64,000 nucleotides of DNA, taken from positions 675 through 64,674 of the forward strand of contig JAQUSB010000002.1 of the NCBI GenBank assembly GCA_028715345.1, read 5' to 3'. Positions within the stretch are counted from its first letter, which is position 1, and every line of letters begins with the position of its first letter. This document shows positions 2,852 to 62,943 of this stretch, piece by piece. The translations under genes and the position numbers were made by a program. This stretch comes from Candidatus Omnitrophota bacterium. Lineage in GTDB: Bacteria; Omnitrophota; Gorgyraeia; 2-01-FULL-45-10. The notes beneath the pieces were generated by a model, which was not told the DNA's origin, did not search any database, and saw only the letters and a list, made by a program, of their open reading frames with translations.

Positions 2852-2993
2852 TGTGCTATATTTGTAACATTAATAAAATGAATCATTTAGTAAAAAACAC
2901 GTCTTTGAACATATAGCCATTCGCAAGCAGTTATCAAGCTTCGGGTGGCTCTTTTTAGTGTGTAAATGCTTGGCGAGGAGGTGACACTCTAAA

Positions 2994-3197
2994 ATGGCGC
3001 AGGGAACAGTAAAATGGTTCAATGACAAAAAAGGGTTCGGCTTTATTATAGCGGATACCGGAAAAGACGTATTCGTTCACCATTCAGCTATCGAGGGGGA
3101 AGGCTACAAATCCCTCAAAGAAGGCGACAAGGTGCAGTTTGAGATAGTGCAGGGACCTAAGGGTGATCAGGCGACGAAAGTCGTCAAGCAATCTTAA
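2994..3197 (+). CDS. cold-shock protein (CspA family)
   Basis: 67 aa; [21 protein letters not shown]-1 motif and [11 protein letters not shown]-2 motif. Confidence 0.9.
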
Positions 3198-4370: not shown

Positions 4371-5084
4371 ATGGCTATACGGATAAGGGAACAGAATAAC
4401 ATACATATACTTGATATAGACGGCCGCATCGATATAAATTCTTCCGAGCTTATCGAGATGGTTGGATGGCTTGTAAATTCCGGCAAGGTAAACCTCATAT
4501 TCAATTTCGAAAATGTCGACATGATCGATTATAACGGGCTTTCGATACTTGCCATAGCATATAAAAACATAGTGAACCATAAAGGCAAGCTGAAACTGCT
4601 TAATGTGCCGATCTCGGTAATAGAGATGATCAAAGTGGTAAAGCTCGACTCTATTTTCGAGCTATACACGGACGAAGAGACCGCGGTCAACAGCTTTGCC
4701 GAAAGCGAAGTCCAGAAACTGCACTTAAGGCGCAAATTCCCCAGACTTGATATCCACCTGAACGTAGAATACAAGCTTATCAGCGACAACAAGAGCCCTA
4801 AGACATTCAGCGGCAACGTCCTTAATATAAGCGCCGCAGGCCTCTATATTTACACTAAAAATACACTCCCGATAGGCACATTGCTGGACCTGCACTTCAC
4901 CATACCCGACTCAAGCGCAGCGCTTGAAGCTACCGGCCGCGTATCGTGGATCGCCGACAAAGACCTGCAGCCTCACGCCTACCCGGGCATGGGCGTATCC
5001 TTTTCTCATCTCACTCCCGAAAAAGAACTCGCGATAGTCGATTTTATCGATAAAAATGTAAGCCACAGGGCCGACCAATCGTAA
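4371..5084 (+). CDS. STAS (anti-sigma-factor antagonist-like) domain fused to C-terminal PilZ domain
   Basis: N-terminal 110 aa SpoIIAA/STAS-like (NNIHILDIDGRIDINSSELIEMV...LNVPISVIEMIKVVKLDSIF); C-terminal RRKFPRLD (RxxxR) and NISAAG (DxSxxG-like) PilZ motifs. Confidence 0.55.
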   Translation: MAIRIREQNNIHILDIDGRIDINSSELIEMVGWLVNSGKVNLIFNFENVDMIDYNGLSILAIAYKNIVNHKGKLKLLNVPISVIEMIKVVKLDSIFELYTDEETAVNSFAESEVQKLHLRRKFPRLDIHLNVEYKLISDNKSPKTFSGNVLNISAAGLYIYTKNTLPIGTLLDLHFTIPDSSAALEATGRVSWIADKDLQPHAYPGMGVSFSHLTPEKELAIVDFIDKNVSHRADQS

Positions 5085-6025
5085 TGAGTAAGCTCGAGGC
5101 CTTACGCAGGGCAAGCGAAGCATTCAAAGAATCTCTGAAAGACTGTACCATATGCCCGCGCGAATGCGGCGTCGATAGAACGAGCGGTCAAACAGGATAT
5201 TGCCGCGCCCCTTATAACCCGGTAGTATACAGCTATCTTGCGCACAGGGGCGAAGAGCCGCCGATCTCCGGGCGGCGCGGATCGGGCACAATATTCTTCT
5301 CCGGCTGCAATATGAAATGCGTCTACTGCCAGAACTATACATTCAGCCAGCTTGACAGAGGCAGCGGGATGTCCATAGAGAAGCTCTCCGAGACGATGCT
5401 CTACCTGCAGAAGATGGGCTGCCATAACATAAACCTCGTGACCCCCGCTCATTTCGTCCCACAGATAGTGTTCGCTCTCGAAAAAGCGGCAGAGGCCGGG
5501 CTCGATATACCTATCGCGTATAATACAAGCGGATACGACAGCGTCGAAACCCTGAAACTGCTGTCGGGGATAATCGATATCTATATGCCGGATATGCGTT
5601 ATTCTAATAATGAGATGGCCGCGCGGTATTCCGACGCGCCCGGCTACGTGGAAATAAACAGGGCTGCCGTAAAAGAGATGTACAGGCAGGTCGGGAACCT
5701 GGTAATAGATAAAGACGGCATTGCCGTGCGGGGCCTTATAATAAGGCTACTCGCTTTGCCCGATAATATATCGGGGACGATCGAGACGCTTAAATTCATA
5801 AAGGAAAGCATATCTCCCGGCGCATATTTGAGCATCATGAGCCAATACTACCCGACCCACAAGGCATTCGATCACAAAGAGCTGTCGCGGGGCATAACGG
5901 GCGATGAGTACAAAAATGTAGTTGACGCTGTAAAACTTTTGGGGTTAAATAATGGCTGGATACAGGAAATGCCTTCAGGGCCGGACGACAAATTTTTAGG
6001 AACGAACATAAAACCCAGGACATAA
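5084..6025 (+). CDS. radical SAM enzyme, PflA/AmmeMemoRadiSam-type activase family
   Basis: 313 aa; CNMKCVYC (Cx3Cx2C) radical SAM motif preceded by extra N-terminal Cys cluster CTICPRECGVDRTSGQTGYC; start overlaps upstream stop by 1 nt. Confidence 0.65.
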   Translation: MSKLEALRRASEAFKESLKDCTICPRECGVDRTSGQTGYCRAPYNPVVYSYLAHRGEEPPISGRRGSGTIFFSGCNMKCVYCQNYTFSQLDRGSGMSIEKLSETMLYLQKMGCHNINLVTPAHFVPQIVFALEKAAEAGLDIPIAYNTSGYDSVETLKLLSGIIDIYMPDMRYSNNEMAARYSDAPGYVEINRAAVKEMYRQVGNLVIDKDGIAVRGLIIRLLALPDNISGTIETLKFIKESISPGAYLSIMSQYYPTHKAFDHKELSRGITGDEYKNVVDAVKLLGLNNGWIQEMPSGPDDKFLGTNIKPRT

Positions 6026-6026
6026 A

Positions 6027-6740
6027 ATGGCGGCAAGCCGAAAGAAGACGATCTCTCACGCAGACCAATTCGAAGCCCTCTCGAAGGTCAGTAAGACCAT
6101 AACGTCAAATCTATATCTCGAGGACATCCTTAAGCTTATAGTGACCGTCACGGCGGAGATAATGGATTCGAAGATATGTTCCATAATGCTTCTCGACGAT
6201 AAGACCAAAGAATTGGTCTTAAAAGCAACGCAGTCGATGAGCGAAGTGTACAATAAGAAGCCGCCGCTTAAGCTGGGTGAGGGCATAGCAGGTAAGGTCG
6301 CCATTGAAAATAAGCCTAGGGCTATATTCGACCTTTCGAAAGAACCGGAATACAAATACAAAGACATCGCCGTCAAAGAAGGTTTGAAGTCGCTTTTGTC
6401 CGTGCCTCTGGCCGTGAGGGGAAAAGTGATCGGCGTATTGAATAACTACACTTCGCACCCCCACAAATTCACCAAAGACGAGATAAACATCCTTAATACC
6501 GTCGCCAGCCAGGCCGCCATCGTCATCGACAACGCGGAGCTTATGGTAAAAACGAAGGTGGTCCAGGAGGAGCTCGAGACGCGCAAGCTCGTCGAGCGAG
6601 CTAAAGGCATCCTCATGCGCGAGCAGGGGCTGGGCGAAGATGAGGCTTTCCGAAAGATACAGAGACAAAGCATGGATATGCGAAAATCGATGCGCGAGAT
6701 AGCGGAAGCGATAATACTCATAGAGAACATGAAAAAATAA
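6027..6740 (+). CDS. GAF domain + ANTAR domain RNA-binding antitermination regulator (paralog 1)
   Basis: 237 aa; N-terminal GAF-like fold; C-terminal ELETRKLVERAKGILMREQGLGEDEAFRKIQRQSMDMRKSMREIAEAII is a canonical ANTAR helix pair; ~60% identical to ORF 60379..61074. Confidence 0.75.
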   Translation: MAASRKKTISHADQFEALSKVSKTITSNLYLEDILKLIVTVTAEIMDSKICSIMLLDDKTKELVLKATQSMSEVYNKKPPLKLGEGIAGKVAIENKPRAIFDLSKEPEYKYKDIAVKEGLKSLLSVPLAVRGKVIGVLNNYTSHPHKFTKDEINILNTVASQAAIVIDNAELMVKTKVVQEELETRKLVERAKGILMREQGLGEDEAFRKIQRQSMDMRKSMREIAEAIILIENMKK

Positions 6741-6742
6741 TT

Positions 6743-6769
6743 TGACAAAATACGCGGAAGTGATATACT
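6743..6769 (+). promoter_or_regulatory. sigma70-like promoter upstream of nadE
   Basis: TTGACA, 15-16 nt spacer, TATACT. Confidence 0.4.
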
Positions 6770-6856
6770 TACTATGTTAATGATGACATTTGAGGACTCC
6801 GGCGTCCGAATCCTAAGAAAGGATGAGGGCGCTTTTCTGTTTTCAGGATAAATTTT

Positions 6857-8533
6857 ATGAAGAAAAATATGAAGATAGCCATAGCTCAGGTAAATTGCAC
6901 GGTCGGCGATCTCGACGGCAACTCCGCGAAGATAATCGAATATATACAGAAGGCCAAAGCCTTAGGAGCAGATATGGTCTCGTTCCCCGAGCTTGCCGTA
7001 ACCGGCTATCCTCCGGAAGACCTTCTTTTAAAAGACGCATTTATCGCGGATAACCTGGAAGCGTTGAAACGCATAGCGAAGTCCGTGAATGACATAGTGG
7101 CGATAGTGGGATTCGTAGATAAAAAAGAGGGTAGCCTTTATAACGCCGCGGCTATTATATATAAAGCAGAGGTAAAGGGCATCTGCTATAAAGAGCTCCT
7201 GCCGAATTACGGTGTGTTCGATGAGCACCGCTATTTTAAACCCGGCAAAGATTCTCTTGTGTTCAGGCTCGGCGATCTCGTATTCGGCGTGAACGTCTGC
7301 GAAGATATCTGGCATACCGAGGGGCCGCTCTGTTCACAGGCCGCGCTCGGCGCCAAGCTCATCATAAACATAAATTCTTCGCCGTACCACGCGGGAAAAG
7401 TAAAAGAGCGCGAGGATATAGTGAGGCGCCAGGCAAAAGAGAATAACGTAGTGGTGAGCTACGCGAACCTCGTCGGAGGACAGGACGAACTCGTCTTCGA
7501 CGGGCAGAGCATGGTCGTGGACAATACCGGTAAAGTCCTGGTGAGGGCGGAGGCGTTCAAAGAAGACCTCGTCGCGATCGACATAGACATACCGGACGAT
7601 AAAGGCGCTCCTTCTAAAAACGTCATAGTGGTAGCTGACGCATATACACCGAAGAACAAGGCCGCCGCGCCTAAAAAAGACGCAAAGACGCTGGACCCGG
7701 CAGCTGAAATATACGAGGCGCTCCTTCTCGGTTTGAGGGATTACGCCTTCAAGAACGGCTTCAAAAAAGCGGCCATAGGGATGTCGGGCGGCATAGATTC
7801 GGCGCTTGTCGCGGCGCTTGCCAAAGATGCCTTGGGGGGAGAGAACGTTATCGGTATCTATATGCCGACCAGGTATTCGTCGGCGCAATCGGGTATAGAC
7901 GCTAAATCGGTTTCAGACAACCTCGGAATAAAATTTACTACGATCTCTATAGACCATATATATAAACTTTACCTGATGTCTCTGGAACCGCAGTTTGCCG
8001 GAGCCCCTAAAGATATAACGGAAGAGAATATACAGGCCAGGATACGCGGCAACGTCCTGATGGCATTATCGAATAAATTCGGCTACCTGGTATTAACTAC
8101 CGGGAATAAGTCCGAAATGAGCACAGGTTACGCTACATTATACGGCGATATGGCCGGCGGGTTCGCCGTGATAAAGGACGTGCCAAAGACGCTCGTCTAT
8201 AAACTTGCCTCATACCGGAATTCAGTGAGCAGGGTCATCCCGGGATCGGTTATCGCTAAAGCGCCTACGGCGGAATTGCGGCCTAACCAGCTCGATCAGG
8301 ACAACTTGCCCCCATACGACGTCCTCGACAAGATACTGAAAGAATACATAGAGGAAGACAGAGGCTACGATGAAATAGTGGCAATGGGATTCGACAAAGA
8401 CGTTGTGACCAAAGTGATGAATATGGTCGATAGAAGCGAGTACAAGAGGAGACAGTCGCCTCCGGGCATTAAGATAACGCCCAAGGCTTTCGGCAGAGAC
8501 AGGAGGATGCCGATAACGAACAAATACAAATAA
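6857..8533 (+). CDS. nadE: glutamine-dependent NAD+ synthetase
   Basis: 558 aa; N-terminal nitrilase/CN-hydrolase domain + C-terminal NAD synthetase with GMSGGIDSA PP-loop. Confidence 0.9.
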   Translation: MKKNMKIAIAQVNCTVGDLDGNSAKIIEYIQKAKALGADMVSFPELAVTGYPPEDLLLKDAFIADNLEALKRIAKSVNDIVAIVGFVDKKEGSLYNAAAIIYKAEVKGICYKELLPNYGVFDEHRYFKPGKDSLVFRLGDLVFGVNVCEDIWHTEGPLCSQAALGAKLIININSSPYHAGKVKEREDIVRRQAKENNVVVSYANLVGGQDELVFDGQSMVVDNTGKVLVRAEAFKEDLVAIDIDIPDDKGAPSKNVIVVADAYTPKNKAAAPKKDAKTLDPAAEIYEALLLGLRDYAFKNGFKKAAIGMSGGIDSALVAALAKDALGGENVIGIYMPTRYSSAQSGIDAKSVSDNLGIKFTTISIDHIYKLYLMSLEPQFAGAPKDITEENIQARIRGNVLMALSNKFGYLVLTTGNKSEMSTGYATLYGDMAGGFAVIKDVPKTLVYKLASYRNSVSRVIPGSVIAKAPTAELRPNQLDQDNLPPYDVLDKILKEYIEEDRGYDEIVAMGFDKDVVTKVMNMVDRSEYKRRQSPPGIKITPKAFGRDRRMPITNKYK

Positions 8534-8577
8534 GATAGTTGTTTCGGCGATGAGATAACGATAAGCAGGACGAGGAC

Positions 8578-8616
8578 GCCCTTTTTGCGCCATGACGCGC
8601 GAGAAGGGCTTTTTTT
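8578..8616 (+). terminator. intrinsic terminator after nadE
   Basis: 13-bp GC-rich stem (GCCCTTTTTGCGC / GCGCGAGAAGGGC, with G-U pairs) + hexaloop, followed by TTTTTTT. Confidence 0.6.
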
Positions 8617-8648
8617 ATTCAACTGGAACAGAAAAAGGAGAAAACGTT

Positions 8649-11546: not shown

Positions 11547-11575
11547 TTGCATTCGCGAAGGGAAGGTGGTATACT
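11547..11575 (+). promoter_or_regulatory. sigma70-like promoter for glnN leader
   Basis: TTGCAT-17 nt-TATACT; predicted start ~11582 coincides with first leader hairpin. Confidence 0.4.
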
Positions 11576-11581
11576 TAAATT

Positions 11582-11661
11582 GCACGTGGAAGTGCTTTTA
11601 TTTAAAGTAAAAATGAACAGAGACGTTCGTATTACAAAAATATGAATGTTTCTGTTTTTTT
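11582..11661 (+). promoter_or_regulatory. glnN 5' leader: dual small hairpins with hexaloops overlapping an intrinsic terminator (ANTAR-target-like antitermination element)
   Basis: hairpin GCAC-GUGGAA-GUGC (11582..11595); hairpin GAAC-AGAGAC-GUUC (11615..11628, loop A1/G4); 13-bp terminator stem 11616..11628 / 11644..11656 + U-run to 11661 uses the same nucleotides as hairpin 2. Confidence 0.5.
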
Positions 11662-11722
11662 ATTGGCTTTCGTGGTAATATATATCGGAACAATATAGCT
11701 TTTAAAATCAGGAGGAAATTCG

Positions 11723-13693
11723 ATGAACGTTCGGCAAAAAGCCCTATTCAGCATTAAAAGCATAGAGCCCCAAAAAGACAGGCTTGCGAAAAAGGTTTCG
11801 TCATATTTCGGTGAAAACACATTCAGCCTGTCGGCTATGCAGAAACATATTTCCAAAGGCACATTCGAAGCCTTCAAACGCTGGATGAGCGAGGGCGCCA
11901 TCATAACGCTCGATCAGGCAAATGAGATAGCGGCCGCTATGAAAGAGTGGGCGATATCCAAGGGCGCCACGTATTATACTCACTGGTTTCAGCCAATGAC
12001 GGGCCTGACCGCCGAAAAGCATGACAGCTTCATCTCCGTGACCGGGCAGGGCAAGGTCATCGAAAAATTCTCGGGCAATAAGCTGATCCAGGGCGAGCCC
12101 GACGCGTCGAGTTTCCCGTCGGGAGGCATAAGAGCGACTTTCGAGGCGAGAGGCTATACCGCATGGGACCCATCGAGCCCGGCTTTCATCATAGAGTCGA
12201 GGCTCGGCAAGACGCTTTGTATACCGACGATATTCATTTCCTATCACGGCGCGGCGCTTGATAAAAAACTGCCGCTTTTGCGCTCCGACGAAGTTCTGAA
12301 CAAATCGGCCGTAGCGTTATTGAAGCTTTTCGGCCATAAAGATGTTAAGAAGGTCGTGTCCACCTGCGGGCCGGAACAGGAATATTTCCTGATCGATAAA
12401 AATTATTATAACCTGCGCCAGGACCTTTTAATGACCGGCAGGACGCTGGTGGGAGCGGCTTCTCCTAAAGGGCAGCAGTTGGAAGACCAGTATTTCGGGA
12501 CGATAAAGGAACGCGTCCTTAATTATATGTTCGAGGTCGCGGAAGAGGCTTATAAGCTCGGCATACCCATAATGACGAGGCATAACGAAGTCGCGCCGCA
12601 CCAGTATGAATTTGCTCCTATGTTCGAAGAATCGAATATAGCCGCAGACCACAATCAGCTCCTCATGGAATTGATGAAAAAAGTGGCGCTCAGGCATAGC
12701 CTTGTCTGCCTTTTACACGAGAAACCTTTTGCCGGGATAAACGGGAGCGGCAAGCATGTGAATTGGTCGCTAGCGGATGACAAAGGGAACAACCTGTTGA
12801 ACCCCGGCGATACGCCTGAGGATAACCTGCAGTTCCTGGCAGTCCTGGCAGCTGTATTGAGGGCGGTATATCTGCATTCCGACCTCTTGAGAGCTAGCGT
12901 TGCCATGGCCGGCAATGAGCATAGACTGGGCGCGAATGAGGCGCCGCCCGCCATAATAAGCGTATTCCTGGGAAACCAGCTGACAAAAATACTGGACATG
13001 CTCGAAAAAGGAGTTAAGAAATCTGTATCTAAAAAAGACATAATGGATTTCGGTATAGCGCGCCTGCCCAGGTTCAATAAAGACTCCACCGACAGGAACA
13101 GGACATCGCCTTTCGCGTTCACGGGAACTAAATTCGAATTCAGGGCCGTCGGCTCGTCGCAGAATATATCGACCCCCATAACGGTCATAAATACTATCGT
13201 TGCCGAGTCGCTCGATCATGTAGCCGATAAGATAAAAAAGGCTTCGGACGGTAAGGATTTTAACACCGCCGTCCTGAAAGTGGTGGCGGAGATAGTAAAA
13301 GAGACGAAGGATATCCGCTTCGAGGGCAATAATTACTCTCCGGAATGGGTAAAAGAAGCGAAGAAGAGGGGGCTACCCAACGTCGCGTCGACGGCAGAAG
13401 CGTTAAAGGCCCTTACAAAAGAGAAGAACGTAAGCCTTTTCGCGAAATACAAAGTCTTTTCCAAAGAAGAGATGGTCGCCAGGTACCACATCTGGGTGCA
13501 TACTTATAACACGATACTCGAGATCGAAGGGAACACGCTCAATGAGATGGTCAATGCGAGCATCATTCCTGCCGGGTTCGAATACGAAAAATTACTGGCG
13601 GACAATTTAAGCGACCTGGCGAGCCTCAAGAAGTCTTCCGCTCTAAAGGTAGATAAATCGGCGTTTGAAGACCTGAAAGCGCACCTGGCGTAA
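11723..13693 (+). CDS. glnN: glutamine synthetase type III (GlnN), first 656 codons, ends at an in-frame TAA
   Basis: N-terminal MNVRQKALFSIKSIEPQ...FGENTFSLSAMQKHISKGTFEAFKRW typical of GS-III; size and domain order match ~729-aa GS-III when joined to next segment. Confidence 0.85.
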   Translation: MNVRQKALFSIKSIEPQKDRLAKKVSSYFGENTFSLSAMQKHISKGTFEAFKRWMSEGAIITLDQANEIAAAMKEWAISKGATYYTHWFQPMTGLTAEKHDSFISVTGQGKVIEKFSGNKLIQGEPDASSFPSGGIRATFEARGYTAWDPSSPAFIIESRLGKTLCIPTIFISYHGAALDKKLPLLRSDEVLNKSAVALLKLFGHKDVKKVVSTCGPEQEYFLIDKNYYNLRQDLLMTGRTLVGAASPKGQQLEDQYFGTIKERVLNYMFEVAEEAYKLGIPIMTRHNEVAPHQYEFAPMFEESNIAADHNQLLMELMKKVALRHSLVCLLHEKPFAGINGSGKHVNWSLADDKGNNLLNPGDTPEDNLQFLAVLAAVLRAVYLHSDLLRASVAMAGNEHRLGANEAPPAIISVFLGNQLTKILDMLEKGVKKSVSKKDIMDFGIARLPRFNKDSTDRNRTSPFAFTGTKFEFRAVGSSQNISTPITVINTIVAESLDHVADKIKKASDGKDFNTAVLKVVAEIVKETKDIRFEGNNYSPEWVKEAKKRGLPNVASTAEALKALTKEKNVSLFAKYKVFSKEEMVARYHIWVHTYNTILEIEGNTLNEMVNASIIPAGFEYEKLLADNLSDLASLKKSSALKVDKSAFEDLKAHLA

Positions 13694-13915
13694 GTGGTCG
13701 CAAAAATATATTACGTGCGCCGCAACGCCAAAGAGATGATGGATCTTCTCGAGAAGGCGCAGAAGAAACACCACGAGGAACGCGCCGCCATATATTTCAG
13801 CCGGCTGAAGCCGCTTATGGAACACATCCGTAAGCACGCCGACCAGTTGGAATGCGTGGTTTCGGATGAACATTGGGACCTTCCCAAATACAGGGAGATG
13901 TTGTTCGTTAAATAA
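13694..13915 (+). CDS. glnN: GlnN C-terminal 73 codons, same frame as 11723..13693, directly after internal TAA
   Basis: Starts at the codon after the TAA (13691..13693) in the identical frame; open for 73 codons; ends ...WDLPKYREMLFVK resembling GS-III C-terminus; 656+73 = 729 aa. Confidence 0.6.
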   Translation: MVAKIYYVRRNAKEMMDLLEKAQKKHHEERAAIYFSRLKPLMEHIRKHADQLECVVSDEHWDLPKYREMLFVK

Positions 13916-13935
13916 CAGCGGTAAGTATTTTAGCG

Positions 13936-13955
13936 CCTGCACTACGTAGTGCAGG
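13936..13955. promoter_or_regulatory. 20-bp perfect palindrome CCTGCACTACGTAGTGCAGG (TGCAC/GTGCA half sites)
   Basis: exact reverse-complement symmetry; between glnN and gltB. Confidence 0.4.
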
Positions 13956-13975
13956 ATAACCGGAAGACTGGACAT

Positions 13976-14024
13976 AGGCGTTCAGATTGGTCATAAGACG
14001 ACCGATTTGAATGCCTATTTTTTT
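13976..14024 (+). terminator. intrinsic terminator with apical GGUC-AUAAGAC-GACC mini-hairpin, 20 nt upstream of gltB start
   Basis: 13-bp stem AGGCGUUCAGAUU / GAUUUGAAUGCCU (three G-U) + U7 run; apex hairpin loop ends GAC like the hexaloops in other leaders. Confidence 0.55.
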
Positions 14025-14044
14025 ATTCAGACAGGTGACTTTTT

Positions 14045-20010: not shown

Positions 20011-20077
20011 CTGAATTAACTTGGCCGCTCGTAGAACTCGCGGCACTTAGCTAACCCATAGGCTGAATTAACTTGCT
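20011..20077 (+). repeat. REP/MITE-like intergenic repeat, copy A
   Basis: CTGAATTAACTTGGCCGCTCGTAGAACTCGCGGCACTTAGCTAACCCATAGGCTGAATTAACTTG; related to copies at 50801..50856 and 57268..57337 (reverse); internal 13-bp direct repeat CTGAATTAACTTG at both ends. Confidence 0.6.
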
Positions 20078-22111: not shown

Positions 22112-22139
22112 TTGACATTTTTGGCTTAAGGGTTATAAT
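22112..22139 (+). promoter_or_regulatory. consensus sigma70 promoter for hppA super-operon
   Basis: TTGACA-16 nt-TATAAT. Confidence 0.55.
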
Positions 22140-22145
22140 ACTGCT

Positions 22146-22217
22146 ATAATCTGACAGACAACGACGTCTTCCAAAAGACCTCCCTTGTTAGGATGGTGCA
22201 GGAGGTCTTCTTTTTTA
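22146..22217 (+). promoter_or_regulatory. hppA 5' leader: AGAC-AACGAC-GUCU hexaloop hairpin + intrinsic terminator
   Basis: hairpin 22156..22169 (loop A1/G4); alternative GUCUU/AAGAC pairing; terminator AAGACCUCC...GGAGGUCUU (22175..22209) + U6; 35 nt before hppA ATG. Confidence 0.5.
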
Positions 22218-49866: not shown

Positions 49867-50799
49867 ATGGATAATCGCGATCATACCGGCAGTGAAAAGC
49901 GCCATACCGCTATGGGCTTGTTTTTAACTCTCCTCGCAATAGTTTTCCTGACAGACATACTTACAAATATCATTACCGCTATATTCCATATTCCCATAAT
50001 ATTAGAATCCGTACTGGGCGGGTTTTTGGTAATTTCGATCGCATACCCGGCCCTCTATCTGCTTATTTTCAAACCCCTATCCGTAGAAATAGCCAGGCGA
50101 AAACGCGTCGAAAAGATGAAGGACGAATTCATCGGCACGGTTTCGCACGAATTAAGAACACCCTTGTCTATCACCAAAGAAGGCCTAAGCCTTGTCCTCG
50201 ACAAGATACCCGGGCCGTTGAACGAACAGCAGGCAAGAATTCTTACAGTATCAAAAAACAATATAAACCGGCTCTCCCGCATAATAAACGACCTGCTCGA
50301 TATTTCGAAGATAGATGCAGGAAAGAAGGTCGTCCGCCATGAAGCCTTCGACATAATACCTGTTATATGGCAGACGATGGCTCTTTTCCAGGCAAGGATC
50401 AGGGATAAAGGCCTGGCATTCAGGAGCGTTCTGCCAAAAGGCGCTATAGTAGTTCGCGGAGACGTTGATGCCATTATTCAGGTATTGACGAATCTTATAG
50501 GGAATGCTCTCAAATTTACCGAGCGCGGGTCCATAGATATATCGCTCAAGGATACCCCGGAAGAGATAGAATTATCGGTCCACGACACGGGGGTAGGCAT
50601 ATCAAAGGAAGACATGCCTAAGTTATTCGAGAAATTCCAGCAGTTCGGGCGCGTCAACGGGCCCGGGGAAAAAGGGACCGGCCTGGGGCTGGCTATAGCC
50701 AAAGGCATAATAACCGCCCACAACGGCAGGATATGGGCGGAAAGCGAATTCGGCAAAGGCACAAAAATTACTTTCGTCCTGCCTAAGAACAAAGAATAG
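49867..50799 (+). CDS. sensor histidine kinase (membrane, HisKA + HATPase_c)
   Basis: two N-terminal TM; H-box FIGTVSHELRTPL; N, G1 (DTGVGI), G2 (GTGLGLAI) boxes. Confidence 0.8.
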   Translation: MDNRDHTGSEKRHTAMGLFLTLLAIVFLTDILTNIITAIFHIPIILESVLGGFLVISIAYPALYLLIFKPLSVEIARRKRVEKMKDEFIGTVSHELRTPLSITKEGLSLVLDKIPGPLNEQQARILTVSKNNINRLSRIINDLLDISKIDAGKKVVRHEAFDIIPVIWQTMALFQARIRDKGLAFRSVLPKGAIVVRGDVDAIIQVLTNLIGNALKFTERGSIDISLKDTPEEIELSVHDTGVGISKEDMPKLFEKFQQFGRVNGPGEKGTGLGLAIAKGIITAHNGRIWAESEFGKGTKITFVLPKNKE

Positions 50800-50800
50800 C

Positions 50801-50856
50801 AAGGCCTCGGTCGGAGACCTCGGCACTTAGCCAACACTATGGCTGAATAAACTTGG
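50801..50856 (+). repeat. REP/MITE-like intergenic repeat, copy B (between kinase and response regulator)
   Basis: AAGGCCTCGGTCGGAGACCTCGGCACTTAGCCAACACTATGGCTGAATAAACTTGG; shares the CGGCACTTAGCnAACnCnATGGCTGAAT(T/A)AACTTG core with 20011..20077. Confidence 0.6.
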
Positions 50857-56108: not shown

Positions 56109-56329
56109 AAATATCCGTAAAAGTCAAAGCCGGATCAAAGCAATATCTGGTCGAGCCCGCCGGAGAGAACCAATACGTCCTGCGCGTAAAGGAAAAAGCG
56201 CTCGAAGGCAGGGCAAACAAGGCAGTGATAGAATTATTGAGCGAATATTTCGACATACCCAAAAGCGCAATATCGATAATCGCCGGGTTTAAAAGTAAAA
56301 ACAAATTGATAGCGATAAAAAAAGATTGA
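56102..56329 (+). CDS. DUF167 (YggU-like) protein
   Basis: 75 aa; VKAGSKQ...EGRANKAVIELL pattern of UPF0235. Confidence 0.55.
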   Translation: MVKISVKVKAGSKQYLVEPAGENQYVLRVKEKALEGRANKAVIELLSEYFDIPKSAISIIAGFKSKNKLIAIKKD

Positions 56330-56353
56330 CATTTTCCCGGAGTATGTTATAAT
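56326..56353 (+). promoter_or_regulatory. consensus sigma70 promoter for nfnAB-gdhA
   Basis: TTGACA-16 nt-TATAAT; first 10 nt TTGACATTTT identical to hppA promoter. Confidence 0.55.
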
Positions 56354-56359
56354 CGCTTT

Positions 56360-56425
56360 TGACAGTACAATTTAAATTAATAGCGAAGACAAAGACGTCT
56401 GCCACTATAGTGGCGGCGTTTTTTT
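56360..56425 (+). promoter_or_regulatory. nfnA 5' leader: AGAC-AAAGAC-GUCU hexaloop hairpin abutting intrinsic terminator
   Basis: hairpin 56387..56400; terminator CUGCCAC-UAUA-GUGGCGG (56399..56418) + U7; terminator stem uses CU of the hairpin 3' arm. Confidence 0.5.
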
Positions 56426-56458
56426 ATTTTTACGGGGCTAATAAAGGCAATCTGATTT

Positions 56459-57286
56459 ATGAAGATACTGAATAAAAAAGTTTTGGGTGAGGTCCAGGGC
56501 ATAAAGATAACGATGCTGGAGGTTGCGGCACCGGACATTGCCCGCAAAGCTAAAGCCGGGCAATTCGTAGCGCTCATGGTAAAAGAAACGGGCGAGAGGA
56601 TACCTCTCACCATTGTAGATAGGAGCGACAAGAACGGCTCTATAACACTCATATTCCAGGAGGCCGGGCTTACCACGCGCCTCCTGGGAAGCCTCAACAT
56701 CGGCGACTCCCTCTACGCGATCGTCGGCCCGCTCGGCCACGCCACGGAGATAAAAAAATACGGCAGGATAATACTGGTAGGCGGCGGCGTAGGCATAGCC
56801 GAGATATACCCGGTCGCTAAAGCTTTTAAAAAAGCGGGCAACAACGTTACCACAATACTGGGGACGCGGACCAAAGACCTGCTCATACTCGAAAAAGAAT
56901 TAAAAGAAACCTCCGACATCTTACACGTCGTCACCGACGACGGCTCGTACGGTAAAAAAGGTTTCACCACCGACGTATTGACGGATCTCCTGAAAAAAGA
57001 CAGATACGACCTCGTTTACGCGGTCGGCCCGATACCTATGATGAGACGGGTCTCCGACATCACCAAAGGGTTCGGCGTGAAGACCGTAGTGTCGCTGAAC
57101 GCTCTCATGGTCGACGCTACCGGCATGTGCGGGTGCTGCAGGGTCACGGTCGGAGGCGCGGTCAAATTCAGCTGCGTAGACGGCCCCGAATTCGACGCAG
57201 GCGACGTCGACTGGGACGAGCTCGTGAAGAGGAACAGGATATACGAAGACAAAGAAAAACATATATGTAAGTTAATTCAGCCATAG
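56459..57286 (+). CDS. nfnA: NfnA/SudB-type FAD/[2Fe-2S] oxidoreductase small subunit (PyrK-like)
   Basis: 275 aa; ferredoxin-NADP reductase-like fold and C-terminal CGCCRV...C cluster. Confidence 0.65.
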   Translation: MKILNKKVLGEVQGIKITMLEVAAPDIARKAKAGQFVALMVKETGERIPLTIVDRSDKNGSITLIFQEAGLTTRLLGSLNIGDSLYAIVGPLGHATEIKKYGRIILVGGGVGIAEIYPVAKAFKKAGNNVTTILGTRTKDLLILEKELKETSDILHVVTDDGSYGKKGFTTDVLTDLLKKDRYDLVYAVGPIPMMRRVSDITKGFGVKTVVSLNALMVDATGMCGCCRVTVGGAVKFSCVDGPEFDAGDVDWDELVKRNRIYEDKEKHICKLIQP

Positions 57287-57337
57287 TGTTGGCTAAATGC
57301 CGAGATCTCCGATCGAGGCCAAGTTGTTAATTAAACC
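57268..57337 (-). repeat. REP/MITE-like intergenic repeat, copy C (inverted), overlapping last 6 codons of nfnA
   Basis: reverse complement TTTAATTAACAACTTGGCCTCGATCGGAGATCTCGGCATTTAGCCAACACTATGGCTGAATTAACTTAC aligns with copies A/B. Confidence 0.6.
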
Positions 57338-60143: not shown

Positions 60144-60230
60144 TACCATTGACAGACTGATGGGACCATGCTAAAATAAGTAAAATTTGGATATAAAAGC
60201 ACAATGTATGTGCTTTTGCGAAGAAGGGAC

Positions 60231-60268
60231 GAAGGCGTTCTCGAAAAGGGAACGCCTTCTTCTTTTTT
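60231..60268 (+). terminator. intrinsic terminator after gdhA
   Basis: GAAGGCGTTC / GAACGCCTTC 10-bp stem, 10-nt loop, TTCTTTTTT. Confidence 0.6.
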
Positions 60269-60378
60269 ACCTTCTTTATTAAGATAAGTTAAATTATCCG
60301 AAACAAAGGTGTTTCATATGCCGATGACAGGCACTATGGGGCATCTTTTCTATTTTTTAATCAGATATCGAGGTAAAT

Positions 60379-61074
60379 ATGGATAGGCCGCTTGATAAAC
60401 AGATAACAGCATTGTCAAAAATAAGCAAGGTCATCGTGTCGGACATGTATCTGGAAGACATCCTTAAGCTGATAGTGAACGTGACGGCGGAAATGATGGA
60501 TTCGAAGATATGCTCTCTTATGCTTATCGACTACAAAACAAAACAGCTCGTAATACGCGCGACCCAGAGCATGAGCGACGCGTACAATAAAAAATTGCCT
60601 TTGAAGATAGGGGAAGGCATAGCCGGAAAAGCGGCAAAAGAGAATAAGCCTATCATCGTAAAGGACATCGCAAAAGAAAAAGAATATAAGCACAAGGATA
60701 TAGCGGAAAAAGAGAATCTTTCGTCCCTTCTATGCGTGCCTTTGTCCGTGAAGAACAGGGTAATAGGCGTGATAAACTGCTACACTTCGAAGCCCCATGA
60801 TTTCACCGAAACGGAAGTCACTATACTGACTTCCATAGCAAATCAGGCCGCGGTCGCGATCGAAAATACGGAGCTGGCCATAAAGAGCAGGCTCGCCAAA
60901 GAAGAACTCGAGACGCGAAAAAAGATAGAACGCGCCAAGGGCATAATAATGAAAGACGAGGGCAAGACCGAAGAAGAGGCGTATCTGAAATTGCAGAAAT
61001 ACAGTATGGATAACCGCAAGAGCCTGCGCGAAGTAGCGGAGGCCGTCATACTTGCGGCGGATATAAAAAAGTAA
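60379..61074 (+). CDS. GAF + ANTAR domain regulator (paralog 2)
   Basis: 231 aa; collinear with 6027..6740; ELETRKKIERAKGIIMKDEGKTEEEAYLKLQKYSMDNRKSLREVAEAVI ANTAR. Confidence 0.75.
   Translation: MDRPLDKQITALSKISKVIVSDMYLEDILKLIVNVTAEMMDSKICSLMLIDYKTKQLVIRATQSMSDAYNKKLPLKIGEGIAGKAAKENKPIIVKDIAKEKEYKHKDIAEKENLSSLLCVPLSVKNRVIGVINCYTSKPHDFTETEVTILTSIANQAAVAIENTELAIKSRLAKEELETRKKIERAKGIIMKDEGKTEEEAYLKLQKYSMDNRKSLREVAEAVILAADIKK

Positions 61075-61148: not shown

Positions 61149-62943
<1,795 letters not shown>

Follow-up and report, generated by a model that had tools for sequence, protein, structure and literature searches.

Two paralogous GAF-ANTAR proteins as predicted antiterminators of a nitrogen-assimilation regulon in Omnitrophota

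Proteins that join a GAF sensor to an ANTAR domain are among the commonest ANTAR architectures. The published ANTAR site consists of two hairpins, P1 and P2, each closed by a C:G pair and carrying A1 and G4 in a hexaloop, P2 overlapping a terminator (PMC3369931, PMC7496416), and on the basis of the EutV-RNA structure the minimal site is one hexaloop, in which a flipped-out G4 stacks on Tyr164 and makes the sole base-specific contact, A1 being uncontacted (PMC8934654). In nitrogen metabolism, antitermination at the leaders of nif, glnK and amtB depends on a REC-ANTAR protein of the GnfK/GnfR system in Geobacter sulfurreducens (PMC2995071), and for Desulfotomaculum acetoxidans and D. reducens, nitrogen regulons under ANTAR control have been predicted by computation only (Ramesh et al. 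2012, PMC3369931). A characterised GAF-ANTAR protein, or one with an assigned regulon or ligand, was not found in the searchable literature (PMC3369931, PMC7496416). Nor did a search of this literature yield a paper dealing with ANTAR control in Omnitrophota. This phylum is uncultivated and consists mostly of ultra-small cells. Here, a stretch of 64 000 nt from a Candidatus Omnitrophota bacterium (contig JAQUSB010000002.1, positions 675 to 64,674, assembly GCA_028715345.1; hereafter the window) was analysed for two GAF-ANTAR genes, GA1 and GA2, which we consider, with a probability of about 0.72, to encode one-component transcription antiterminators of a nitrogen-assimilation regulon. That the window encodes an ANTAR antitermination system of two members, linked to nitrogen, had been suggested from the sequence alone (the original prediction), and this suggestion is supported by terminator-overlapping hairpins, strand asymmetry, synteny, RNA-contact residues and GAF similarity.

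GA1 (ORF 6027..6740, + strand, 237 aa) and GA2 (ORF 60379..61074, + strand, 231 aa) were identical at 142 of 224 residues in a gapless BLASTP alignment (63%, E 1e-106), close to the ca. 60% first claimed for the pair. Both proteins matched Pfam families GAF_2 (PF13185; 75 bits in GA1 and 94 bits in GA2, far over the cut-off), which spans residues 31-168, and ANTAR (PF03861; 78.5 and 70.3 bits, cut-off 27.3). Exact matches of both in NCBI, named "GAF and ANTAR domain-containing protein", were on one 94-kb contig of a Candidatus Omnitrophota metagenome-assembled genome.

Eight ANTAR-type attenuators were located in the window by folding and hairpin search, i.e. those of nadE, porin-amtB-glnK, glnN, gltB, hppA and nfnA-nfnB-gdhA, and a further two upstream of GA2 itself. 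They comprised six strict matches and two variants. Each had a nitrogen-related ORF on its 3′ side and a promoter or a preceding gene on its 5′ side, and contained a small hairpin closed by a C:G pair, with G as the fourth loop base. The 3′ half of P2 doubled as the beginning of the terminator 5′ arm in seven of the eight, hppA being the exception, and thus a P2 kept closed would prevent termination. Leader hairpins had been claimed at glnN, hppA and nfnA, and all three were present; the attenuators of nadE, porin-amtB, gltB and, most importantly, of GA2's own leader are additional to these. Strong sigma-70-type promoters (11-12 of 12 positions) preceded nadE, hppA, nfnA and GA2, with a weaker one upstream of glnN, and an intrinsic terminator was present between each of these promoters and its ORF.

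Conservation of the motif was counted in related loci. A scan of species-representative genomes gave 546 regulator relatives, and the 80 best of these loci (1.14 Mb, largely from Omnitrophota), being neighbourhoods of regulator genes, were used. The helix-based scan for a hexaloop with closing C:G pair and G4, on a stem of at least 4 and overlapping a terminator arm with a T-tract after it, resulted, for the window and the 80 loci together, in 106 matches in the orientation of the regulator gene versus 36 in the opposite one. When restricted to the AC[...]GT core (AC[NNNGRY]GU hairpin plus terminator; loops in square brackets), the counts were 83 on the coding strand versus 3 on the other, and matches without this core (23 versus 33) were background. 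The loop consensus of P2 was A/G/U, A, A/U, G, G/A, C, with A at loop position 1 in 48 of 83 loops. As the scanner itself demanded pairing, the bare core ACNNNGRCGT was tested separately, and occurred 181 times on the + strand versus 61 times on the - strand; the next two stem positions beside it both paired in 50% (+) versus 21% (-) of cases, with five flanking pair types (GA/TC, GG/CC, AG/CT, GG/TC and AA/TT). Upstream hexaloop-G4 P1 hairpins accompanied 35 of the 83 sites, versus 10.9 ± 2.7 in shuffles (maximum 19). The clearest sequence evidence for ANTAR-type sites is the dual-hairpin pattern (RCAC-N6/7-GTGY, 3-32 nt, RRAC-NNNGNN-GTYY), found 31 times on the + strand versus 0 on the - strand; its P1 loop was left free in the search, and nevertheless carried G4 in 31/31 and A1 in 25/31 matches. 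Many tandem units were single hairpins, which is consistent with the revised single-hexaloop minimal site.

The overlap with terminators also bears on the mode of action. ANTAR-mediated translational repression has been described in mycobacteria (bioRxiv 10.1101/660928), and the regulators might likewise block translation at ribosome-binding sites instead of acting by antitermination. However, P2 overlapped a terminator stem with T-tract in 83 cases, and was positioned tens of nucleotides 5′ of the start codons, not over them, which makes this explanation extremely improbable.

The bare pattern GACNNNGNNGTC was also tried. It was enriched (15 versus 4.8), yet was too loose and matched coding sequence and palindromes as well, and therefore terminator overlap and strand asymmetry were used instead. 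In the MAFFT alignment of nadE attenuators, terminator 3′ arms were mis-registered by interior indels and were left out of pair counts. In two loci (L021 and L072), the outermost P2 pair had changed from G-C to A-U, and the terminator 3′ arms from G to A in step.

The leader features of the window are the following.

6742..6843, + strand: nadE leader, promoter at 6742-6769
6774-6789, + strand: nadE P1, ATGTT[AATGAT]GACAT, from hairpin search
6794-6807, + strand: nadE P2, GGAC[TCCGGC]GTCC, from hairpin search
6802-6832, + strand: nadE terminator and T-tract
8542..8617, + strand: porin-amtB-glnK leader, doubling as the nadE terminator
8542-8555, + strand: porin P1, TTTC[GGCGAT]GAGA, from hairpin search
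8567-8582, + strand: porin P2, AGGAC[GAGGAC]GCCCT, with one A-C mismatch
8578-8609, + strand: porin-amtB-glnK terminator
11547..11665, + strand: glnN leader, promoter at 11547-11575
11582-11595, + strand: glnN P1, GCAC[GTGGAA]GTGC, from hairpin search
11613-11630, + strand: glnN P2, ATGAAC[AGAGAC]GTTCGT, terminator at 11615-11657
13936..14026, + strand: gltB intercistronic attenuator (glnN-gltB), terminator at 13974-14018
13936-13955, + strand: gltB P1, CCTGCAC[TACGTA]GTGCAGG, from hairpin search
13968-13985, + strand: gltB P2, CTGGAC[ATAGGC]GTTCAG, from hairpin search
22112..22217, + strand: hppA leader, promoter at 22112-22139, terminator at 22175-22209
22156-22169, + strand: hppA hairpin, AGAC[AACGAC]GTCT, clear of the terminator with no overlap
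22181-22193, + strand: hppA candidate P2, TCC[CTTGTTA]GGA, 7-nt loop, inside the terminator
56326..56430, + strand: nfnA-nfnB-gdhA leader, promoter at 56326-56353, terminator at 56391-56423
56359-56370, + strand: nfnA weak P1, TTG[ACAGTA]CAA, from hairpin search
56387-56400, + strand: nfnA P2, AGAC[AAAGAC]GTCT, from hairpin search
60149..60358, + strand: GA2 leader, promoter at 60149-60177
60198-60214, + strand: GA2 attenuator 1 P1, AGCAC[AATGTAT]GTGCT, 7-nt loop
60226-60241, + strand: GA2 attenuator 1 P2, GGGAC[GAAGGC]GTTCT, terminator at 60231-60259
60283-60298, + strand: GA2 attenuator 2 P1, GATAA[GTTAAA]TTATC
60300-60315, + strand: GA2 attenuator 2 P2, GAAAC[AAAGGT]GTTTC, terminator at 60305-60348

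The nadE leader unit was kept in orthologous leaders, five of which (L016, L017, L021, L022, L024) had two tandem attenuators; in a sixth (L020), a similar first hairpin was judged by eye only. Two to three complete attenuators in series were common in orthologous nadE and amtB leaders, and were present at L005 7047-7212 and L009 11298-11460. The distinct hairpin classes in such series were usually ordered with AGAC[AAUGAU]GUCU first and GGAC[NNNGRC]GUCC next. In the nadE leader of the window, the first unit was reduced to a P1 hairpin without terminator. The weakest site of the window was the porin-amtB-glnK attenuator, for which clean versions were found in the porin/amtB leaders of seven loci (L005, L007, L012, L016, L017, L021, L024). 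The nfnA/gdhA leaders of L018, L028, L034, L039, L040 and L078 carried [AARGRY] loops, mostly AAAGRC. An overlap of the hppA hairpin AGAC[AACGAC]GTCT with its terminator was considered and rejected, and the architecture of this leader is atypical; the hppA leader of L002 contained the same element pair as the window, AGAC[AATGAT]GTCT and TCC[TTCGGTA]GGA.

One of the attenuated genes, glnN (11723..13915), had an in-frame TAA at 13691-13693 (codon 657), a position at which Glu or Asp is encoded in 13 orthologues, and its frame ran on for 73 conserved residues past this codon. The TAA represents a nonsense mutation, or otherwise a variant of the assembly or of the population. As the frame continues past it, the glnN-gltB spacer was taken as 13916-14044.

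The AlphaFold2 (AF2) model of GA2 (mean predicted local distance difference test score, pLDDT, 89) contained a GAF fold, a long helix and a three-helix ANTAR domain (helices 144-194, 198-212 and 216-230), and the continuous helix 144-194 is predicted to join GAF to ANTAR as a dimerising helix. PDB matches of the ANTAR part were Rv1626, EutV, NasR and AmiR. The RNA contacts of EutV (R142, K143, E146, K149, E160, M172, R175) aligned with residues at least 95% conserved in each of the GA1 and GA2 clades described below, with R186, K187, K193, E204, F208/Y202, M216 and R219 as the equivalents of R142, K143, K149, E160, aromatic 164, M172 and R175; the G4-stacking Tyr164 aligned with F208 in GA1 and with Y202 in GA2. 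As these contacts are kept in both clades, GA1 and GA2 both look like competent binders of G4 hairpins.

Alternatively, the attenuators could be real but respond to a different factor, e.g. an RNA that binds a metabolite, PII/GlnK, or an RNA-binding protein with its gene elsewhere, and the GAF-ANTAR proteins would in that case act on other targets. The relaxed A1, the 7-nt length of some loops and the limitation of sampling to regulator neighbourhoods would leave room for this. However, the hairpins match the ANTAR consensus in the features that contact protein, i.e. G4, the closing C:G pair and at least 3 stem pairs (PMC8934654). Rfam searches of the leaders produced no family at gathering thresholds, nor at E ≤ 1, glutamine riboswitches included, and leaders of ca. 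60-90 nt are too short, and too variable outside the hairpins, for an aptamer. The regulator genes adjoin attenuated genes in dozens of species, and all ANTAR-coding places in the 1.2 Mb sampled (89/89) were GAF-ANTAR genes, other ANTAR architectures having been sought in these regulator neighbourhoods and none found. A different operator is accordingly regarded as very unlikely, and GA1 and GA2 as the probable antiterminators.

In the neighbour-joining tree of 87 proteins, the GA1 clade was apart from the GA2 clade, and a third clade was often encoded beside GA2 genes. As judged from this tree and from their gene contexts, GA1 and GA2 represent old, separate clades. GA1 is the final gene of a unit in which a radical-SAM ORF (5084..6025) overlaps the stop of a STAS-PilZ ORF (4371..5084) and ends 2 nt before the GA1 start, and there is no attenuator 5′ of GA1. 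It is followed by the glutamine-dependent NAD synthetase gene nadE (6857..8533; CN_hydrolase and NAD_synthase domains, NCBIfam NAD+ synthase with 749 bits), and then by genes for a porin, amtB, glnK, glnN (glutamine synthetase type III, GSIII), gltB, gltD, an amino-acid permease and a H+-pyrophosphatase. ORF positions and domain matches thus agreed with the context first described for copy 1, a STAS-PilZ / radical-SAM unit with nadE and the amtB-glnK-glnN-gltBD block downstream. The radical-SAM protein had no specific family match. A functional link of the STAS-PilZ and radical-SAM proteins to GA1 is possible, e.g. by partner switching or input from cyclic di-GMP (c-di-GMP); the ORFs overlap or abut (4371-6740).

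Loci of the GA1 clade nearly always had the order abhydrolase-PilZ-def-YqeY-hypothetical protein-(STAS-PilZ)-radical-SAM-GA1-nadE, with glnN, amtB-glnK, nfnAB or gltB after nadE. The radical-SAM-GA1-nadE synteny was present in about 23-26 species-level loci, most with STAS-PilZ just 5′ (L002-L028), and GA1-clade genes had no attenuator upstream. Genes of the GA2 clade adjoined gdhA, amtB-glnK and gltBD. In the window, GA2 was preceded by nfnA/nfnB-like genes and gdhA, and followed by pyrG, with its start placed at ATG 61321 and not at GTG 61228, and then by carA; a cysteine-rich ORF of 47 aa was observed between GA2 and pyrG (61149-61292). In orthologous loci, other genes follow GA2, usually a 550-aa Glu_synthase-domain gene and otherwise amtB-glnK or gltBD, and therefore the adjacency of GA2 and pyrG is not conserved. 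The claim that both copies lie directly 5′ of a glutamine-amidotransferase gene thus stands as a conserved arrangement for GA1 and nadE, whereas for GA2 and pyrG it is not conserved.

GA2-clade leaders were conserved and elaborate, being composed of a promoter, a P1 with 7-nt loop (GCAC[A-N-N-G-U-N-N]GUGC) and P2 with terminator, often followed by a second and third attenuator, and 19 attenuator matches were found 5′ of GA2-clade genes, 1-3 in tandem. The 7-nt P1 loop was restricted to GA2 leaders and was observed in nearly all of the clade (window 60198-60214; L032, L034, L038, L039, L041, L050, L054, L058, L061, L063, L065, L070 and L072), the P1 loops of GS, amtB and gltB leaders being 6 nt long. 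It could mark paralogue discrimination.

Redundancy of GA1 and GA2, without division of labour, would be in line with the small number of positions strictly separating the clades, just five (V21I, S125C, N140C, I165V, F208Y), and with the sameness of their RNA-contact residues. On the other hand, both clades are old and conserved over many species, their contexts differ consistently (GA1 unattenuated after the radical-SAM gene, GA2 behind 1-3 attenuators), and the residue that stacks on G4 is invariably F in one and Y in the other. GA1 is also much more conserved than GA2, with over 120 Omnitrophota database proteins at 78-88% identity versus about ten at ≥78%. Full redundancy is hence doubtful, and the paralogues look to differ chiefly by expression. 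Cysteines specific to GA2 were observed at C119 (60733-60735) and C134 (60778-60780), where GA1 has Ser and Asn; in the model these are placed on neighbouring GAF beta-strands, near a Cys45 common to both copies.

Target genes were counted within 450 nt 3′ of + strand matches. The most frequent were the GA2-type regulator (19), nadE (15), amtB (11), gdhA (6) and glnN (3), followed by porin and nfnA (2 each) and carA, gltB, glnK and hppA (one each). Unannotated targets included GS type I, Glu_synthase-domain proteins, a class-I amidotransferase, porin-like proteins 5′ of amtB and a small sigma/LuxR-like protein. The predicted regulon would consist of nadE, porin-amtB-glnK, glnN/glnA, gltBD, nfnAB-gdhA and hppA, to which relatives would add carA and other amidotransferases.

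The signal was approached by comparison of the GAF domain. Its best PDB sequence matches were the PtsP GAFs 3trc (1.3e-15) and 3ci6, then the NifA-like Nlh1 (4g3k); for GA2 the top match was 3e0y, a Geobacter GAF without assignment, and 3trc/3ci6 ranked first or second by sequence. NCBIfam gave PtsP (PRK11061, 2.6e-21), NifA (TIGR01817, 3.3e-11), FhlA (1.4e-5) and NreA (7.6e-4), and the top Foldseek matches of the GA2 model were again the PtsP structures 3trc and 3ci6. Glutamine binds the GAF domain of PtsP/EI-Ntr and inhibits autophosphorylation in Sinorhizobium meliloti, Caulobacter crescentus and Escherichia coli, with a reciprocal effect of 2-oxoglutarate in E. coli (PMC4848567 and Lee et al. 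2013, referred to therein). As PtsP/EI-Ntr and NifA have the most similar GAF domains, the signal would be nitrogen status, and we infer glutamine or 2-oxoglutarate, or both, as the ligand of GA1 and GA2. NasR had been cited as a GAF sensor of nitrate and nitrite, which is incorrect, as NasR senses nitrate via a NIT domain (PMC7496416, PMC3369931).

Some probability, clearly the smaller share, is left for antiterminators of this same regulon whose GAF domain reads a cyclic nucleotide, redox state or another metabolite. The GAF of Lcd1 with cAMP (5w10) was a close fourth in both sequence and fold searches, by a small margin, the clade changes S125C and N140C (the two GA2 cysteines) are in neighbouring GAF strands, and the PtsP GAF offers no known ligand-contact residues to compare. 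Against this, three methods ranked PtsP first and NifA-type GAFs next, the regulon is centred on glutamine and glutamate enzymes, and the F of the cyclic-nucleotide (cNMP)-type NKFDE motif, as read by eye, is not conserved between GA1 and GA2. A nitrogen signal is thus preferred.

In the mechanism that we infer, which extends to RNA binding, the ligand, the direction of the response and the order from GA1 to GA2, the N-terminal GAF domain would bind a small-molecule signal, which would alter the dimer formed via the long linker helix. The ANTAR domains would then bind leader hairpins in the nascent RNA, P1 first and P2 next, and P2, when held closed, would block the terminator so that RNA polymerase reads into the gene. 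GA1, made unattenuated with a housekeeping-type unit, would be the constitutive standing sensor. When active, it would open the leaders of nadE, porin-amtB-glnK, glnN, gltBD, hppA and nfnAB-gdhA, and also the serial attenuators 5′ of GA2, whose product would reinforce the response. As GA2 is located behind 1-3 like attenuators, it would be induced by GA1 and/or itself, forming a positive-feedback amplifier. The eutVW genes of Enterococcus faecalis are likewise auto-induced via an ANTAR-controlled leader. A more far-reaching scheme, in which GA1 reads glutamine/2-oxoglutarate and GA2 a second signal via C119/C134, series of two or three attenuators with distinct hairpin classes serve as RNA-level logic gates, and an entirely post-initiation circuit, with a feed-forward/positive-feedback loop via GA2, replaces NtrBC/sigma-54 or GlnR-type control in the phylum, is speculative and rather improbable as a whole.

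Several points weigh against antitermination of a nitrogen regulon by GA1 and GA2. The genes gdhA and GS/GOGAT (glutamate synthase) respond oppositely to nitrogen supply in many bacteria, and here their leaders carry one kind of attenuator. A1 was conserved in only ca. 58% of P2 loops, some P1 hairpins had 7-nt loops, the hppA hairpin was without terminator overlap, and porin P2 carried a mismatch. Another ANTAR protein may be encoded elsewhere in the genomes, beyond the sampled regulator neighbourhoods. The ligand assignment is weak, because GAF identity to PtsP was ca. 22-30% and 5w10 was nearly level.

Two other features of the window were observed. A 35-nt intergenic repeat, CGGCACTTAGCYAAC..GGCTGAATWAACTTG, was present in three copies (0 expected by chance), at 20041-20075 (+) after gltD, at 50821-50855 (+) after ORF 49867..50799, and at 57268-57302 (-) between nfnA and nfnB; it looks like a site for protein binding or a repetitive extragenic palindromic (REP)-like element. 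The gene for a cold-shock protein (2994-3197) had a long 5′ untranslated region (window 2858-3197), weakly resembling the Rfam cspA thermoregulator RF01766 (47 bits, under the gathering score of 78).

The locus provides a defined test system, with two short proteins that look soluble, no fewer than eight natural target leaders of clear P1/P2/terminator geometry and a specific ligand hypothesis (glutamine / 2-oxoglutarate). The tandem attenuators, together with an auto-attenuated regulator, are natural material on how serial terminators shape the dose-response. The locus also indicates, as judged from sequence comparison, that Omnitrophota control much of nitrogen assimilation after transcription initiation.

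Compared with the described systems, GA1 and GA2 resemble GnfR as ANTAR proteins that would relieve leader terminators of nitrogen genes. The GnfR site CAGGCAANGGCGCC, i.e. a GGC[AANGGC]GCC hexaloop overlapping a terminator, is much like GGAC[NNNGGC]GUCC here, and in both cases the regulator is induced within a cascade, documented from GnfL/M to GnfK/R (PMC2995071) and predicted here from GA1 to GA2. GnfR is, however, a phosphorylated response regulator in a sigma-54 cascade, whereas here the GAF domain is fused, promoters are of a sigma-70-like type and the regulator exists as two paralogues. With EutV/EutW of E. faecalis, the shared features are the dual hairpin with G4, the P2-terminator overlap, several attenuators per regulon and the full set of RNA-contact residues (PMC3369931, PMC8934654). 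EutV differs in its REC input, ethanolamine genes, strict A1 hexaloop and critical short linker; here, A1 is relaxed, linkers are 3-25 nt, some P1 loops are 7 nt, and there are tandem arrays of attenuators with a single hairpin. Klebsiella oxytoca NasR is likewise a one-component sensor-ANTAR fusion acting on a nitrogen-assimilation leader terminator (PMC7496416), but it has a NIT domain responding to nitrate/nitrite and a single target operon, in contrast to GAF and a large predicted regulon.

In D. acetoxidans and D. reducens, many ANTAR sites are likewise predicted 5′ of PII, amtB, GS and GOGAT genes; these regulons belong to another phylum, their regulator architecture was not assigned, and neither a cascade of paralogues nor auto-attenuation in tandem was reported for them (PMC3369931). 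The closest sensor relatives are the GAFs of PtsP/EI-Ntr and NifA (3trc, 3ci6; PMC4848567), which read glutamine / 2-oxoglutarate and have as output a phosphoenolpyruvate (PEP)-phosphotransferase or an AAA+ activator, in place of the RNA-binding domain here. The mechanism, RNA motif and nitrogen theme are thus already known (EutV, NasR, AmiR, GnfR, and the predictions of Ramesh et al. 2012), and the paradigm of ANTAR and nitrogen metabolism is left unchanged. To this, the present comparison of sequences adds a predicted regulon for the GAF-ANTAR architecture, its apparent phylum-wide use in Omnitrophota, a putatively constitutive and auto-attenuated paralogue pair, and serial attenuators.

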